From contig CAVXYW010000001.1 of the NCBI GenBank assembly GCA_963766295.1, forward strand, positions 735,196 to 799,195: a stretch of 64,000 bases of DNA. The letters run 5' to 3'. Both the position numbers and the translations under genes were made by a program. The notes beneath the pieces were generated by a model. The model did no database searches. It worked only from the letters and a program-made list of their open reading frames with translations, and was not told the DNA's origin. Of the stretch, positions 3,195 to 12,267 are shown in pieces. Numbering within the stretch: position 1 is the stretch's first letter; every line of letters starts with the position of its first letter. Origin of the DNA: an uncultured Actinomycetes bacterium (lineage in GTDB: Bacteria; Actinomycetota; JAICYB01).

Positions 3195-4607
3195 ATGGTC
3201 GAGGCGCGCGCCACTTCCGCAAATCAAATAGAGCCCGACTTCGCCGCTCGGCAGTCGCTTCTTTGGGCGATCGCTTGGCTCGTTGGCGGTGTGACGGTGA
3301 CACTTGCTGCGCAGCTCCTTCTGATCCGGCCGGACATCACAGGAGATCTCGGCTTTTTGTCTTATGGGCGGCTTCGTGGCGTCGCCGACACCACCATCGT
3401 CTTCGGATGGCTCGCGGTGGCGGGCTTCGCGGCGATCTACGCACTCATACCGCGGATCACCGAGGTGCAGCTCCACAACGAAGTGCTGGGCGCCGCTACG
3501 ACGCTTACTTGGAGCGTCGTCGTAACCGGAGGCATCCTTGCGTTGGTGCTCGGCATAAACCAGGGGCGTCCGTTGGGCGAGCTACCGGCCGGCGCAGATC
3601 TGGGCATGGCCCTTCTGCTCGCCTTCGTCCTGTTCAACGCCGGCGTAACGGTGGTGCGACGGCGGGAACGCACGCTGTACGTGACCGGGTGGTTCCTCCT
3701 CGCCGCGGCTTTGCTCGCACCCGTCGTTTTCGTGATCGGAAATCTTCCCGTTTTTGAAGGCGTTACGGACTCGATCGTGAGCGGCTTCTACCTGAACGGC
3801 ATCGAGATGTTGTGGCTTCTGCCCATCGCGCTGGGTGTCGCCCACTACGTGATACCGGTCGAGACGGGCAAGGCTCTTTACTCCGCGACCCTGGCACGCA
3901 CGACGTTCTGGAGCTTGATCTTCTCCGGCGGCTGGGCCGGACAACGCTTCTTCCTCGGCGGCCCGGCACCCGACTACTTGGAAACGATCGCGGTCGCCAT
4001 GACTTTGGTGCTTCTCGTTCCCGTCCTCTCCTCGGCAGCGAATCTCTATGCGACCGGCCGGGATCGATGGGAGCTGATCTCCAAGTCCTATTCGTTGCGA
4101 TTCGCGACGACCGGACTCGCGCTTCTCGTTGCATGGATTGTTCTTCTGGCGTTCAGCGCGATGCCCGCGGTGTCCCGATTCTTTGGGTTGACGGCGTGGG
4201 GTGCGGGCCTCCGCCATCTCGCGATCTTCGGAGTCTTTTCGTCCTTTGCGTTTGCACTCATCTATCACCTGTACCCGCTGATGGTCGGGCGAGACTGGTT
4301 CTCGCGCTCGGTTGCTTCCTTCCACTTCTGGACGACCCAGATCGGTGTGATCGTCGGCACGGTCGCCTTGTTTGCGATCGGGGCAGCACAGTCGGTCCAG
4401 TCGAGCTTGTCCACGGGAGCACAGGCAACGCTGCCGAACACGAACGTGATCGGGTTGTTGCGGGTTGTATCGGCCGCGGCGTTTGCCGCGGTCGTCGTGG
4501 CGCAGTACGCACTGGCGTACAACACGTTCAGGACTTCGCGGTCCGGTCCCTTCGTTCAGACCCCGTCCACCGGTGTTTTGACGTCGGCAACGGAGCGTTC
4601 GTCTTGA
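3195..4607 (+). CDS. cbb3-type cytochrome c oxidase subunit I (CcoN)-like protein with degenerate metal ligands
   Basis: 470 aa, about 12 TM, collinear with CcoN (SYGRLR, GELP, LYVTGWF, WAG, LRF, HFW), but most ligand His are replaced (see findings). Confidence 0.85.
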   Translation: MVEARATSANQIEPDFAARQSLLWAIAWLVGGVTVTLAAQLLLIRPDITGDLGFLSYGRLRGVADTTIVFGWLAVAGFAAIYALIPRITEVQLHNEVLGAATTLTWSVVVTGGILALVLGINQGRPLGELPAGADLGMALLLAFVLFNAGVTVVRRRERTLYVTGWFLLAAALLAPVVFVIGNLPVFEGVTDSIVSGFYLNGIEMLWLLPIALGVAHYVIPVETGKALYSATLARTTFWSLIFSGGWAGQRFFLGGPAPDYLETIAVAMTLVLLVPVLSSAANLYATGRDRWELISKSYSLRFATTGLALLVAWIVLLAFSAMPAVSRFFGLTAWGAGLRHLAIFGVFSSFAFALIYHLYPLMVGRDWFSRSVASFHFWTTQIGVIVGTVALFAIGAAQSVQSSLSTGAQATLPNTNVIGLLRVVSAAAFAAVVVAQYALAYNTFRTSRSGPFVQTPSTGVLTSATERSS

Positions 4608-5044
4608 AGCTGCGCGCCGATCGCAGGGTCGGACTACTCCTCGGCGGCGTCGTCCTTCTCATGTTCGTAGCCATCGGCGCGACGATCGCGTTGCCGGCGA
4701 CTGATTCGTCCCTGAAAGGCGAAGCTACGGAGTTGTCCGAAGCGGAAGAGCGCGGAATGAAGGTCTACCGAAGCGAAGGCTGTTGGTACTGCCATTCGCA
4801 GTACGTGCGAGATACCGAACGTGGTGGTGATGAGCCTTTGGATGCCGCGGCTTATTCGAGCCGCTCGCCGTCCATGCTGGGACTCGAGCGCATAGGTCTC
4901 GATCTGACGCACGGGCCCACGCTCACAGGCAGCGCGCTCACCGAGTTCCTTGCCGGCGGAGAAGACGGCCACGCCCCGCCGTACGGATACCTGTCGGACG
5001 AAGACCTCGAGGCACTCACCGCTTACCTGTTGTCTTTGCAGTGA
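4604..5044 (+). CDS. cbb3-type oxidase subunit II (CcoO)-like monoheme cytochrome c
   Basis: TTG start overlapping the ccoN-like stop (TTGA); one N-terminal TM; VYRSEGCWYCHSQYVR and RIGLDL match the CcoO EGCxxCHSQ and RTGPDL patterns. Confidence 0.85.
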   Translation: MKLRADRRVGLLLGGVVLLMFVAIGATIALPATDSSLKGEATELSEAEERGMKVYRSEGCWYCHSQYVRDTERGGDEPLDAAAYSSRSPSMLGLERIGLDLTHGPTLTGSALTEFLAGGEDGHAPPYGYLSDEDLEALTAYLLSLQ

Positions 5045-5184
5045 GTCTTCGCGACACCTTCATTCAGCTCGGCTTCGTCGTTCTTGCTGCCGGTGTGGTC
5101 GTCGCCGTCCGAACACTTTTCGTATTCCGCTTCAAGGACAAGCCGAAAGCGAAATCTAAACGGCCCGAACGTCCGAAAACGTGA
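5041..5184 (+). CDS. 47-aa single-TM protein, CcoQ-like by position
   Basis: GTGA overlap with ccoO-like stop; MSLRDTFIQLGFVVLAAGVVVAVRTLFVFRFKDKPKAKSKRPERPKT (one TM plus basic tail). Too short for the ORF track. Confidence 0.55.
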   Translation: MSLRDTFIQLGFVVLAAGVVVAVRTLFVFRFKDKPKAKSKRPERPKT

Positions 5185-8414: not shown

Positions 8415-10203
8415 ATGAGCCAGGGGCTCCAACGATTCCGCCGGCTTGCGCTCGGCACCGCGATCGCAACCCTCGCTCTAACCGGCGTGGGCGGACTGGT
8501 CCGCGGTACCGGGTCCGGTTTGGGCTGCCTGGACGAGTGGCCGAAATGCCGCGGCGGCTGGATCGCACCGATCGAATACCACGCGCTCATCGAATACGCG
8601 CATCGTGCGCTGGCCGGGAATCGTCGTCGTCCTCATCGTTGTGCTTGTTCTTGCAGCTCGTCGCTGGGTAGGGGAGCGACGATCGCTTTTTTACCTCTCG
8701 GCGTCGGCGCTCGTAGTTGTGGTCGCACAAGCTTTGCTCGGCCGTGAAGTTGTTACTTCGGGTCTTCACGCTGCGCTCGTCACCGCGCACTTCTTGCTCG
8801 CGCTGGCACTGGTCGGTTTAGTGACGATCGTTGCTGCGTCCTCGTACTCGTTGGGACAACCAAGCGCTGTCGAAAAGGCGCAGCTCCGTTTAGCGCGAAC
8901 GTCGATCGGCGCAGTCGTTGCGCTCTTGCCGGTGCTCGTGCTCGGAGCTTATGTACGCGAGAAAGGCGCGGGCTCCGCGTTCGGCGACTGGCCGCTCATG
9001 GGCGGCGAGCTGATCCCGTCGTTCGACGCACCAGGGGCCGGCTTGCACTTCGCACATCGGCTTCTAGTGCTGCTGGCATCGGGTCACCTGATCGTTCTTG
9101 CGCTTCGGGCGCGCTCCGACGATCGGCGCGATGTGCGTGTCCTCGGAATCGGCGGGCTGCTTCTCTTCTTTGGACAGGCTCTCGTGGGAGCCGCGAATGT
9201 TTGGACCGGCCTGCAACCGGCCGCTGTCGTCGGACACTCGTCGCTCGCGTATGTGACGTGGGCTGCCTACGTGGCTCTCGTTGTTGTTTCGCGGTACGGC
9301 GCTCAAAGCGGAGGAGGTTCCGCACCGCTGATCCGAAAACCCTTCGCAAGCGTTCGCGCCTACGCGAACCTCACGAAGCCGCGCATCATCATCCTGCTTC
9401 TCGTCACGACGGTTCCGGCGATGGTGCTCGCACAACGCGGCATGCCGCCGCTTTGGTTGATGGGCGCGACTTTGCTCGGCGGGATGATGACGGCCGGCAG
9501 TGCGAACGCTCTTAATCAGTATCTCGAGCGCGACATCGACGAGAAGATGCAACGAACCCGCAAACGCTCCCTTCCATCGCATCTGGTGGATCCAACGCGA
9601 GCACTCATCTTCGCGATCGCTCTCGGCCTCGCCGGGTTCGTTTGGCTGACCGTTGTTGTGAATCTGTTGAGTGCGATCCTTGCCGTGAGCGCGATCGCTT
9701 TCTACGTCCTCGTTTACACACTTCTGCTGAAACGATCGACTCCCCAGAACATCGTCATCGGAGGTGCGGCCGGAGCCGTGCCTGTGCTCGTCGGTTGGGC
9801 CGCCGTAACCGGAACCATCGAAGCACCGGCTTGGGTGATGTTCGCGATCATCTTTCTTTGGACGCCCCCGCATTTCTGGGCTCTCGCGATGCGTTACCGG
9901 GACGACTACGCCGCTGCCGGCGTCCCCATGCTCCCCGTCGTTCGAGGCGATGATGCGACGACGCTGCAGATCTTCCTTTATGCGGTCGTGCTGGTCGTCT
10001 CGACCTTGGTCTTGTCTCCCGTCGGCGGTCTGGGTGTCTTGTATGCGGCCAGTGCAGCGGCTCTTGGCGGAGGGTTCATCTATAAGGCCGTACGTCTCCG
10101 GCTGGCTCCGAGCGCGGCCTCGGCCGTGAAGCTCTTCCGTTACTCGATCACCTACCTTGGCCTGCTGTTCGCAGCGATCGCGGTCGATCGGCTCGTTTGG
10201 TGA
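8415..10203 (+). pseudogene. ctaA-ctaB: Heme A synthase (CtaA/Cox15)-heme O synthase (CtaB/CyoE) fusion interrupted by a +1 frameshift near 8619
   Basis: Frame 1: GLGCLDEWPKC...EYAHR. Continuation in the next frame: IVVVL...HFLLA...HFAHR...GHSS, then CtaB motifs LTKPRII, NQYLERDIDEKMQRTRKR, KRSTPQNIVIGG, WTPPHFWAL, DYAAAGVPMLP. May be a sequencing error. Confidence 0.8.
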
Positions 10204-10261
10204 CTTGGTTGAGCGCACCTTCCTGTGTTGTCATGCTTCCGGTCTGATGGAGTCCTTTCTG

Positions 10262-10993
10262 ATGAAGTCTTGGCGACGCCTTCGTTGGCTCATCCCGGCC
10301 GGCTTTCTGCTGGCGACTGTGGCATGCGGTAAAACTCCGGAAACTACCGAGCAAGCGCGTGGCGTCCTTTCGGGAGTGAACATCGTGCTCGCGATGACCG
10401 TCGTCCTCGTGGTCATCGCCGGCGGACTTTTGATCGGTGCGTTCGGGTTCGATCGGTTCGTGCGGTCGCGCAAACGGCTCGCCGAAGTGCCCGCGGAACC
10501 GGAGGAGGAAGGCGACGAGGTCGTGGCCGGTATCACAGTCGGTCGGGCAGGCGTTCCGCGCTGGCTGTACGCGTTCTACGTCCTCATCCCGGTCTTCGCG
10601 ATGCTTTACGTTTTCACGAACATCCCGATCGAAGCCGACGAAGCTGGCGCTGAACCGACTGCAACGCCGCAGGGCCCATGCACCGAGTGCACGATCGTCG
10701 CCAGCGGAATCGCTTTCGACCTCGATGAGATCATCGCTCCAGCGGCGACCGACATCACCGTGACATTCGATAACCAGGACACCGGAGTGCCGCACGACTT
10801 CACGGTTTGGGAATCGGAGGCGGCGGCCGGCGCGGGTGGCGACGCCGGCCAGATCGCGACCAGCGGGACGATCAACGGAGGTGTCAGCAAAGACGTCACC
10901 TTCAATTCCGACGGCGCGGGCGAGTATTACTTCAACTGCACCATCCACCCGCCGTCGATGAACGGCACCTTCGAAGTCGTCGCGGAAGGCTGA
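10262..10993 (+). CDS. Membrane lipoprotein with CcoP/FixP N-terminal-like segment and C-terminal type-1 copper cupredoxin domain
   Basis: GGAG SD before ATG 10262; lipobox-like LATVAC; two TM; GITVGRAGVPRWL; cupredoxin ligands PHDF...CTIHPPSM. Confidence 0.75.
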   Translation: MKSWRRLRWLIPAGFLLATVACGKTPETTEQARGVLSGVNIVLAMTVVLVVIAGGLLIGAFGFDRFVRSRKRLAEVPAEPEEEGDEVVAGITVGRAGVPRWLYAFYVLIPVFAMLYVFTNIPIEADEAGAEPTATPQGPCTECTIVASGIAFDLDEIIAPAATDITVTFDNQDTGVPHDFTVWESEAAAGAGGDAGQIATSGTINGGVSKDVTFNSDGAGEYYFNCTIHPPSMNGTFEVVAEG

Positions 10994-11007
10994 TTCTTTA
11001 GCGGCCG

Positions 11008-11013
11008 TAGACT
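11008..11013 (+). promoter_or_regulatory. -10 element of an apparently leaderless gene
   Basis: TAGACT followed by 6 nt, then the GTG start at 11020; no SD. Confidence 0.5.
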
Positions 11014-11019
11014 CAGGTT

Positions 11020-12267
11020 GTGTCCTATGACCTGATCGTCGCCGGTGGTGGTCCCGCAGGTTCCTCCGCAGCGTGGCGTGCTGCAAGCTCCGGTGCCCGC
11101 GTTCTCATTGTCGACAAAGCCGAGTTCCCACGCGACAAGCCTTGCGGTGATGGGCTGACCCCGCGCGCCGTCGCCTCGATAGACGCTATCGGTCTTGGCA
11201 ACGAGCTCAAACGTTTCAACCGCGTGGACAAGCTTCGGATCCACGGCGCCGGTCGCACATTAACCTTCGATTGGCCGGGCTCGGACTCGTTCCCCGATCA
11301 CGGCTATGTGATCGCGCGAACCGATCTGGACGAGATGATGCTCCGCCATGCGGTGGCAGCGGGTGCAGAAGTGCGTGAAAAGACTGCAGCGGTTGCACCG
11401 ATCGTAGAGAACGGTTCAGTGCGCGGCGTGACCGTTAAGCACAACGGCGCAACCGAAGAATTGCAGGCTCCAGTGGTTGTCGCAGCCGACGGAGCATCGT
11501 CGGTGATCGGGCGTGCGCTGGGGATGGTGGCCGATCCCAAGCGTCCGATGGCTGCTGCGATGCGTGCGCACTTCGAAGCCAAGCGCCCGGTCGCAGACGA
11601 CGGCGTCATCGAGAGCCATCTGGAATTGCGCGACGGCGACTCGCTGCTTCCCGGCTACGGATGGATCTTTCCGATGGGTGAGGGACGAATCAATGTCGGC
11701 GTTGGAGTGCTGTCCACCTACAAAGGCTGGCGCGAAGTGAACAACGCACACTTGATGGAAGTTTTCCTGCGAGCGCTTCCCAAAGATTGGGAACTGCCGG
11801 ATCTGTCTGCGTTGCGTGAAAGCGGACAGCTCAAGGGCTGGCGCCTTCCGATGGGTCTTTCCGTGTGGCCGCCGTGGCGCCCCGGTGCGATCGCCTGCGG
11901 TGACGCCGCCGGCGTCATCAATCCGTTCAACGGTGAAGGGATCTCCGAGGCCGTTGAGTCCGGAGTGATCGGCGCCGAGGTCGCATTGGCTGCGATGGAT
12001 CATCGGGGGCCAACAGATCTGTCCGTTTACGCGGAGCGTCTCGACGATCAATGGGGGCCGTATTACAGGCTGGCCCGAACATTCGTGAAGCTCATCGGAC
12101 GCCCGCGCATCATGCGCGCCCTCACGGTTTTCGGCATGCGCGTCCCGCCGGTCATGGAGTTCGCCTTCAAGATGCTCGCCAACCTCTATCACGAGCAGGG
12201 CGGAGCCAAGGGCGACGCTCTGGTTCGCGCCATGCTGCGGGGCGCGACCGTGATCAAGGTCGGCTAG
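11020..12267 (+). CDS. menJ: Geranylgeranyl reductase family flavoprotein, probable menaquinone reductase MenJ
   Basis: GGGPAG FAD motif, RDKPCGDG, GYGWIFP, GDAAGVINPFNGEGI; sits just upstream of nuoA as in other actinobacteria. Confidence 0.8.
   Translation: MSYDLIVAGGGPAGSSAAWRAASSGARVLIVDKAEFPRDKPCGDGLTPRAVASIDAIGLGNELKRFNRVDKLRIHGAGRTLTFDWPGSDSFPDHGYVIARTDLDEMMLRHAVAAGAEVREKTAAVAPIVENGSVRGVTVKHNGATEELQAPVVVAADGASSVIGRALGMVADPKRPMAAAMRAHFEAKRPVADDGVIESHLELRDGDSLLPGYGWIFPMGEGRINVGVGVLSTYKGWREVNNAHLMEVFLRALPKDWELPDLSALRESGQLKGWRLPMGLSVWPPWRPGAIACGDAAGVINPFNGEGISEAVESGVIGAEVALAAMDHRGPTDLSVYAERLDDQWGPYYRLARTFVKLIGRPRIMRALTVFGMRVPPVMEFAFKMLANLYHEQGGAKGDALVRAMLRGATVIKVG

Follow-up and report, generated by a model that had tools for sequence, protein, structure and literature searches.

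A gene in the 64,000-nucleotide stretch of DNA analysed here (the window; contig CAVXYW010000001.1 of an uncultured Actinomycetes bacterium) encodes a protein, CUPR, in which a membrane anchor of the CcoP type is fused to a type-1 copper domain in place of haem c domains. Homology between this anchor and the anchors of CcoP-type subunits is well supported by sequence comparison, and it is very likely that the CUPR gene descends from the gene of a P subunit. We lean slightly toward a product that still docks on the CcoN-like and CcoO-like proteins (N' and O') encoded in the window and that would act there as a copper relay. The preliminary description of this DNA had proposed that CUPR is the missing P subunit of these proteins, with type-1 copper replacing haem c. 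The evolutionary part of that proposal stands, on the grounds of anchor homology, gene position and co-occurrence; its functional part, an electron entry point, is better taken as a relay. Residue numbers below count from the ATG at 10262, and the features of the gene and its product are as follows (TM, transmembrane; AF2, AlphaFold2 model).

10247..10993, + strand: whole CUPR open reading frame (ORF), stop codon 10991-10993
10262..10327, + strand: predicted lipoprotein-type signal peptide ending at lipobox Cys22 (LATVAC22 followed by GK), Cys22 codon 10325-10327
10328..10375, + strand: conserved outer-face segment GxxPExTExARGVLxG after the lipobox Cys
10376..10450, + strand: TM helix 1, residues 39-63, predicted to run from out to in (AF2 helix 39-75)
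10451..10513, + strand: residues 64-84, a basic stretch next to TM helix 1 on the predicted cytoplasmic side, then an acidic linker (alignment)
10514..10621, + strand: FixP_N-like anchor, motif DEVVAGITVGRAGVPRWLY and TM helix 2, residues 85-120 (TM helix 2, residues 100-120)
10679..10990, + strand: cupredoxin (type-1 copper) domain, residues 140-243 (Pfam, PDB profile search, AF2 and Foldseek)
10682..10693, + strand: CTEC pair (C141 and C144), linker before the copper domain (sequence)
10793-10795, 10937-10939, 10946-10948 and 10958-10960, + strand: codons of the copper ligands H178, C226, H229 and M233, respectively (alignment)

Third genes and the CcoP-type anchor

Relatives of the anchor were sought in 401 Actinomycetota genomes, which were scanned with FixP_N and with the CcoN-like protein of the window and whose neighbourhoods were then read. 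In families f10, f17, f46, f48 and f60, the CcoN-like and CcoO-like genes are immediately followed by a gene that bears the anchor motif of CUPR, and we refer to the product of such a third gene of a pseudo-cbb3 cluster as P'. The P' of f10 is a protein of ~65 amino acids (EIGGIRIAQNRVPAWLL...) that passes Pfam FixP_N at 26.4-27 bits. Those of f17 and f60 are longer: cytoplasmic repeats lead into the anchor VPTxGIKERTNxxxPxWLxxxFVxxPxFA, which is joined to a single haem domain of the CcoP type; the same long form, with the start of the motif missing, is found in f46 and f48. Long-form P' scores 35.8 bits with Cytochrome_CBB3 and only 15.5 bits with FixP_N, so a sub-threshold FixP_N score is normal for genuine actinobacterial CcoP-like proteins. 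We found no description of actinobacterial pseudo-cbb3 third subunits in the literature.

Profile-profile comparison with hhalign places the CUPR anchor with these third-gene anchors. The hhalign probability is 97.5% (E 6e-12) against all third-gene anchors together, 95.7% (E 1e-8) against the f10 type alone and 97.0% (E 1.2e-10) against the cytochrome c type alone. Against the N-termini of seven alphaproteobacterial CcoP proteins it is 82.7% (E 9e-6), with GI aligned on DGI and PRW on PRW. The observed profile-profile scores were 27.7 and 54.8; column shuffles, 150 per target, reached at most 16.9 and 15.7, and reversed profiles gave 7.5 and 10.4. A hidden Markov model (HMM) built from third-gene anchors only, run against 42,611 six-frame ORFs of the genome, returned CUPR as its sole significant match (E 1.5e-5; runner-up 0.57). 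CUPR also ranked first in a six-frame genome scan with FixP_N (15.2 bits) and in a search with an HMM from the seven alphaproteobacterial CcoP N-termini, the latter match not being significant (E 2.1). The best CUPR homologue in the class reaches 19 bits with FixP_N over profile positions 3-39 in the six-frame scan and 15.9 bits by hmmscan. The preliminary description had likened residues 82-115 of CUPR (EGDEVVAGITVGRAGVPRWLYAFYVLIPVFAMLY) to FixP_N; this resemblance is upheld by profile-profile comparison and by intermediate actinobacterial sequences, some of them past the Pfam cut-off, and not by the direct Pfam score. We conclude that the CUPR anchor is the only one of its type in the genome.

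The anchor, a GI...PxWL motif on the predicted cytoplasmic side and then a TM helix that contains Pro, is also the best-conserved segment of the protein, with a mean pairwise identity of 0.77; the value is 0.70 in residues 22-38 (lipobox Cys and outer-face segment) and 0.48 in the copper domain. This conservation suggests a specific protein partner and speaks against a passive tether. When an anchor-only HMM was run against 1.8 billion representatives, it returned 25 proteins, all of them anchor plus cupredoxin, and no haem-bearing or anchor-only relatives. With all 25 matches fused to a cupredoxin, the search of sequences with an HMM evidently fails to bridge a gap that profile-profile comparison bridges. 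Foldseek matches to the full CUPR model are dominated by the copper domain. A protein that combines cytochrome c with a cupredoxin (P0108) was considered as a possible link and dropped, as it matches through the copper domain only.

The long P' proteins have an N-terminal region of their own. In f17, f46, f48 and f60, one to three cytoplasmic repeats of ~40 amino acids (AAALGVPExLVxRSAxARAAxxGxSxDEILxAWAGG) precede the anchor, and these repeats have no Pfam match. The genes that bear them were located by neighbourhood reading.

L031 7749-8969, - strand: repeat-bearing P' gene
L049 3593-4642, - strand: repeat-bearing P' gene
L053 3331-4353, - strand: repeat-bearing P' gene
L052 2858-4069: repeat-bearing P' gene
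L054 3164-4255: repeat-bearing P' gene
L055 2676-4256: repeat-bearing P' gene

The copper domain and the layout of CUPR

The C-terminal part of CUPR passes two Pfam cut-offs for type-1 copper proteins (PF00127, PF13473), Cupredoxin_1 with 31.8 bits against 27 and Copper-bind with 26.9 against 21.2. The ligand set H178...C226-x2-H229-x3-M233 is conserved, as the preliminary description had read it: in a 40-sequence alignment of the family H178, C226 and M233 are invariant and H229 is near-invariant, and all but 5 of the 121 family members (116) keep a C-x2-H-x(2-4)-M loop. A search of the PDB with the family profile gave auracyanin A (2aan, E 1e-11) as the best solved relative. The AF2 model has a mean predicted local distance difference test (pLDDT) score of 83.4, with values of 95-98 across most of the copper domain, and its top Foldseek match is the Roseiflexus auracyanin 6kol (E 3.4e-10, TM-score 0.72), with azurins, amicyanin, auracyanins A and B, lipid-modified azurin and AcoP ranking below it. 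Model and matches agree on the Greek-key beta-sandwich fold of type-1 copper proteins. Judged by sequence and model, the domain is an ordinary-looking type-1 electron-transfer domain, similar to those of auracyanin and plastocyanin. No CxxCH occurs after the anchor, as had been reported, nor anywhere else in the 243 amino acids of CUPR, and the protein has no cytochrome Pfam match. The additional CTEC (C141 and C144), also reported earlier, is optional in the family: the linker Cys pair is present in 41 of the 121 members, a single Cys in none. It could form an optional disulfide or an extra metal site.

Upstream of the copper domain, CUPR is predicted to be a lipid-modified protein with two TM helices. 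C22, at which we predict lipidation from the lipobox, is invariant (40/40) in the 40-sequence alignment, and a lipobox-like pattern is found in 86 of the 121 family members; distant members, among them P0119, P0120 and P0122, are without it and keep the anchor. The same alignment shows P26, E30, A32, R33, G34 and G38 of the outer-face segment to be invariant. TM helix 1 is followed by the basic stretch DRFVRSRK, and its proposed out-to-in orientation would fit the positive-inside rule. In cbb3 oxidases one or more N-terminal TM helices of CcoP make the contact by which it joins a CcoNOQ subcomplex, and Pseudomonas stutzeri CcoP has two such helices (PMC7876108); the two-TM topology predicted for CUPR matches this arrangement. 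In one distant relative, P0123 (L064 5379-6392 and L065 74-1087), a further cupredoxin-like domain stands N-terminal to the anchor.

The ORF at 10262-10993 (+) encodes 243 amino acids, as first described, although an alignment of upstream DNA from eight loci of the class shows the invariant ATG to be that at 10247 (MESFLMKSW...), with 10262 as the second in-frame ATG. The spacer between the upstream ctaAB gene and CUPR contains a conserved motif.

10225..10240, + strand: GTGTTGTCATGCTTCC, a conserved motif of 16 nucleotides (nt) between ctaAB and CUPR, separated by 6 nt from the conserved ATG

This motif is near-invariant across the eight loci, and its 15-nt core TGTTGTCATGCTTCC (10226-10240) has a single exact copy in the 2.9-Mb genome. 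Translated in frame, it reads as a 'CCHAS' peptide, which some gene callers include in the protein (P0007 begins MCCHAS). It is probably a regulatory or 5'-untranslated-region element. A scan of 9900-11300 for promoters and terminators gave no signal beyond chance.

Gene neighbourhood and the role of CUPR

The genes of the window on which the placement of CUPR depends are listed here; Q' denotes the small one-TM ORF after O', and GGR a geranylgeranyl-reductase-like gene.

3195..4607, + strand: CcoN-like pseudo-oxidase subunit N', the proposed docking partner (Pfam COX1, 128.7 bits)
4604..5044, + strand: CcoO-like monohaem cytochrome c O' (CWYCH kept; Ala at the axial Met position)
5041..5184, + strand: Q', a conserved 47-amino-acid one-TM ORF (MSLRDTFIQLGF...) in the CcoQ position, overlapping the CcoO-like stop
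8605..10203, + strand: ctaA-ctaB fusion (haem A and haem O synthases), co-directional upstream neighbour, its adjacency to CUPR kept in the class
11020..12267, + strand: GGR, a GGR-family flavoprotein, 27 nt downstream of CUPR and followed by the nuo operon

Across the class the order of genes is ccmCBA, p373 (encoding a 373-amino-acid membrane protein), N', O', Q', opposite-strand genes for a lipoprotein, an ABC transporter and a polyprenyl synthase, ctaAB, CUPR, GGR and nuo; in the window, 43-58 nt separate ctaAB from CUPR. In the other families it is N'-O'-P'-(0-3 genes)-GGR-nuo, and in f48 P' abuts GGR directly. Because CUPR adjoins GGR and nuo, it occupies the slot of the third genes in those families. 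The simplest history would be the insertion of a block between O' and P' and the exchange of the haem head of P' for a cupredoxin, perhaps a copy of the paralogous cupredoxin that is encoded last in the cta operon. That operon, ctaCDEFG with the paralogous cupredoxin, lies on another contig of the same genome (C2:839931-845226), CUPR staying behind ctaAB; the identity to the paralogous cupredoxin is 34%. In every family examined whose locus extends far enough (the window, L028-L030, L049, L050, L055, L061 and L069), GGR stands between P' or CUPR and nuoA; it may encode a menaquinone side-chain reductase linked with the respiratory island. Within the cta operon (G000 C2:840934-842605), the A-family ctaD aligns with its homologue as three segments, overlapping at ~841767-841814 and apparently in different frames; a frameshift or a misassembly of the metagenome-assembled genome could explain this.

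The proposed partners of CUPR are degenerate, as the preliminary description had recognised. N' keeps one of the six canonical ligand His, and in O' the axial Met is replaced by Ala. With five of six metal-ligand His lost from CcoN, the complex cannot reduce oxygen. The same degeneracy of the CcoN-like protein is seen in f10, f17, f46, f48, f60 and f63, and f4 keeps two of six His; f3, f23 and f26 have a CcoN with all six ligand His and a CcoO fused to multihaem cytochromes. At the axial position of CcoO (canonical ...ESVMPSY...), the Ala of the window is Gln in L031, and Met is kept in L066 (4727-5197) and L049, so haem ligation of the CcoO-like protein varies within the pseudo-cbb3 family. 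Directly after the pair there is no cytochrome-type ccoP, in agreement with the first reading of the window, and only the 47-amino-acid ORF at 5041-5184. This ORF occurs throughout the class, has a 41-amino-acid counterpart in L066, gave no family match and is not FixP_N-like; a second FixP_N-like gene after the CcoO-like gene was considered and rejected, the ORF there being without the motif. A separate case is L048 3967-4581 (G092, f23), a lipoprotein-type cupredoxin gene right after a ccoO-cytochrome c fusion in an actinobacterial genome whose CcoN keeps all six ligand His; it is an independent link of cupredoxins to C-family oxidases.

CUPR has 107 homologues at E <= 1e-3. The class as defined by GTDB comprises 10 genomes from one family and 8 genera, and both CUPR and the CcoN-like protein are present in all 10. 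Both are present as well on a more distant metagenome contig, L066, where the CcoN-like protein is 46% identical. The co-occurrence with ligand-less ccoN anticipated in the preliminary description is therefore observed in the class and on one distant contig; no independent distribution was seen, and the genomes with CUPR are a subset of those with the ligand-less CcoN. When 185,579 species genomes were scanned with a pattern, no more than 9 loci came up. Together with the 25 representatives found by the anchor HMM, these loci confine the fusion of anchor and cupredoxin to this lineage and its close relatives.

We propose that the conserved anchor would dock CUPR on the ligand-less CcoN-like scaffold, beside the haem c of the CcoO-like protein, and would hold the copper centre at the outer face of the membrane. 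From there the copper centre could pass single electrons between c-type haems (those of the CcoO-like protein and of the b6c complex) and the caa3 oxidase, so that CUPR would serve as a tethered relay and not as the entry point of an oxygen reductase. The copper site had been described as an electron entry point, which cannot be meant literally since the CcoN-like protein lacks the haems and the CuB that would accept electrons; a role as relay or adaptor is the better fit. That CUPR is physically a member of the N'/O' complex, and with whom and in which direction it exchanges electrons, is what we infer here. A wider proposal is offered tentatively. In it, N', O', the Q-like subunit and CUPR would form an unrecognised respiratory adaptor complex, a dead cbb3 oxidase reused as a scaffold, in which type-1 copper on a CcoP-derived subunit wires a b6c-type complex III to the caa3 oxidase as the copper counterpart of membrane-anchored cytochrome cy. 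The redox head of P' would then be exchangeable across Actinomycetota (none, haem c or copper).

Several observations weigh against a P subunit that still serves the pseudo-cbb3 module. With Pfam FixP_N, CUPR itself scores 12.3 bits (E 0.14), below the gathering cut-off of 24.9, and the whole-family profile, searched against the PDB at E <= 10, found cupredoxins only and no solved CcoP chain. The CUPR gene is not adjacent to ccoNO: 5.2 kb, with an opposite-strand block and ctaAB, lie between the CcoO-like gene and its start. Co-occurrence with the CcoN-like gene is confounded by synteny of the whole block and represents about two independent lineages, all of uncultured organisms, which makes it a weak test. 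In the distant members P0119, P0120 and P0122, the gene ends a co-directional string, ctaAB-ctaC(+cytochrome c)-ctaD-ctaE-ctaF-ctaG-cupredoxin-CUPR. On one contig CUPR and the preceding cupredoxin gene overlap by 4 nt, and elsewhere they lie within ~45 nt of each other. String and overlap point to co-expression of CUPR with a caa3 oxidase. Finally, the relative P0123 stands in an unrelated context (VapB, ArsP and T4_deiodinase-like genes), away from cta and cco genes. In these distant relatives GGR follows CUPR where the contig continues, and the P0119 contig carries, upstream, ccmCBA, a p373 counterpart, the CcoN-like and CcoO-like genes and a 41-amino-acid ORF.

Alternatively, CUPR may be a tethered blue-copper carrier or partner of a caa3-type (A-family) oxidase, in the manner of auracyanin, AcoP or membrane-bound cytochrome c, its CcoP-derived anchor being a relic tether that no longer binds the CcoN-like protein, an explanation that we consider possible but rather unlikely. 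The cta string of the distant relatives, the position of CUPR close behind ctaAB in the window, the caa3 operon with its paralogous cupredoxin in the same genome and the presence of auracyanins and the oxidase partner AcoP among the fold matches are all in its favour. However, a plain tether would hardly be the best-conserved part of the protein, nor would it need the invariant GI...PRWLY...IP.FA motif that CUPR has in common with subunits whose genes adjoin those of CcoN-like proteins, and in the class ctaCDEFG moved to another contig while CUPR stayed in the P' slot by GGR and nuo. Synteny alone does not separate a pseudo-cbb3 subunit from a caa3 carrier, and CUPR could play both roles in a module that carries electrons from complex III on to the oxidase.

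It is improbable that CUPR is a copper-handling or assembly factor that delivers copper to CuA or CuB and not an electron carrier. Its neighbours, ctaAB here and ctaG in relatives, and the optional extra Cys pair in the linker could be taken that way, but the ligand set and fold are those of electron-transfer type-1 sites, and CUPR matches no chaperone family in Pfam or NCBIfam. Known CuA chaperones (Sco and PCuAC) use other folds and motifs. Least probable of all is an ordinary anchored plastocyanin that resembles FixP_N by chance, through a short PxW motif ahead of a hydrophobic helix, as the low Pfam score and the non-significant alphaproteobacterial match could suggest; against this, CUPR is the top genome match of three independent profiles, its hhalign matches to two independent third-gene anchor sets lie well beyond those of shuffles, and it sits in the third-gene position.

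CUPR among known respiratory copper proteins

Overall, CUPR combines parts that are each known, namely a FixP_N anchor, an auracyanin-like domain and the replacement of cytochrome c by a copper protein; what is new is how they are combined and that this occurs in the setting of a ligand-less oxidase scaffold. The CcoP described so far is a haem c subunit, and we found no report in the literature of a copper version or of a CcoP-type anchor fused to a cupredoxin. If CUPR docks on the CcoN-like protein, it would be the first type-1 copper subunit on the frame of a C-family oxidase. The three forms of P' (anchor only, haem c and copper) would also show that actinobacterial pseudo-cbb3 modules are still electron-transfer devices and not inert relics, and they provide a testable handle on the role of widely mis-annotated "cbb3 oxidases". 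In current annotation CUPR is labelled only "plastocyanin" and its partner "cbb3 oxidase subunit I", labels that would wrongly predict a high-affinity oxidase in reconstructions of the class.

The closest counterparts are the P' proteins of other Actinomycetota, which share the homologous anchor (hhalign 95.7-97.5%), the same place relative to GGR and nuo, and CcoN-like/CcoO-like partners degenerate in the same way. Unlike P', whose redox domain is haem c or missing and whose N-terminus is a cytoplasmic repeat domain, CUPR has a copper domain and an N-terminus made of lipobox and TM helix 1, and its gene is separated from the CcoO-like gene by the inserted block. With CcoP/FixP (FixP_N plus two Cytochrome_CBB3 domains; P. 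stutzeri, 3MK7), CUPR shares the cytoplasmic GI...P(R)W motif, a TM helix and a periplasmic redox domain, and probably descent from the third gene of a ccoNO-type cluster. It differs in having one type-1 copper domain and no haem c domains, a lipoprotein signal, a gene uncoupled from ccoNO and a proposed CcoN partner without five of the six metal-ligand His, and in missing the thresholds of both Pfam FixP_N and TIGR00782 (CcoP).

AcoP of Acidithiobacillus ferrooxidans (7z3f), sulfocyanin SoxE of the Sulfolobus SoxM complex and the halocyanins are likewise membrane-bound cupredoxins that replace a c-type cytochrome beside a terminal oxidase, and they provide precedent for copper in place of haem c. 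Their partners, in contrast, are A-family or archaeal oxidases, their anchors are unrelated, and the likeness is weaker, with E 2e-7 for the fold of AcoP and a sub-threshold 18.1 bits with Pfam SoxE on one CUPR homologue. Auracyanins A and B of Chloroflexus and Roseiflexus (2aan, 1qhq and 6kol) have the closest solved copper domains by both profile and fold and are, like CUPR, blue copper carriers tethered to the membrane, serving a respiratory or photosynthetic chain; auracyanin A is lipid-anchored. They have a simple lipid or single-helix tether, alternative complex III as partner and no CcoP-type anchor. CUPR also has a lipobox Cys, but it adds to this a two-helix anchor that contains the best-conserved motif of the protein.

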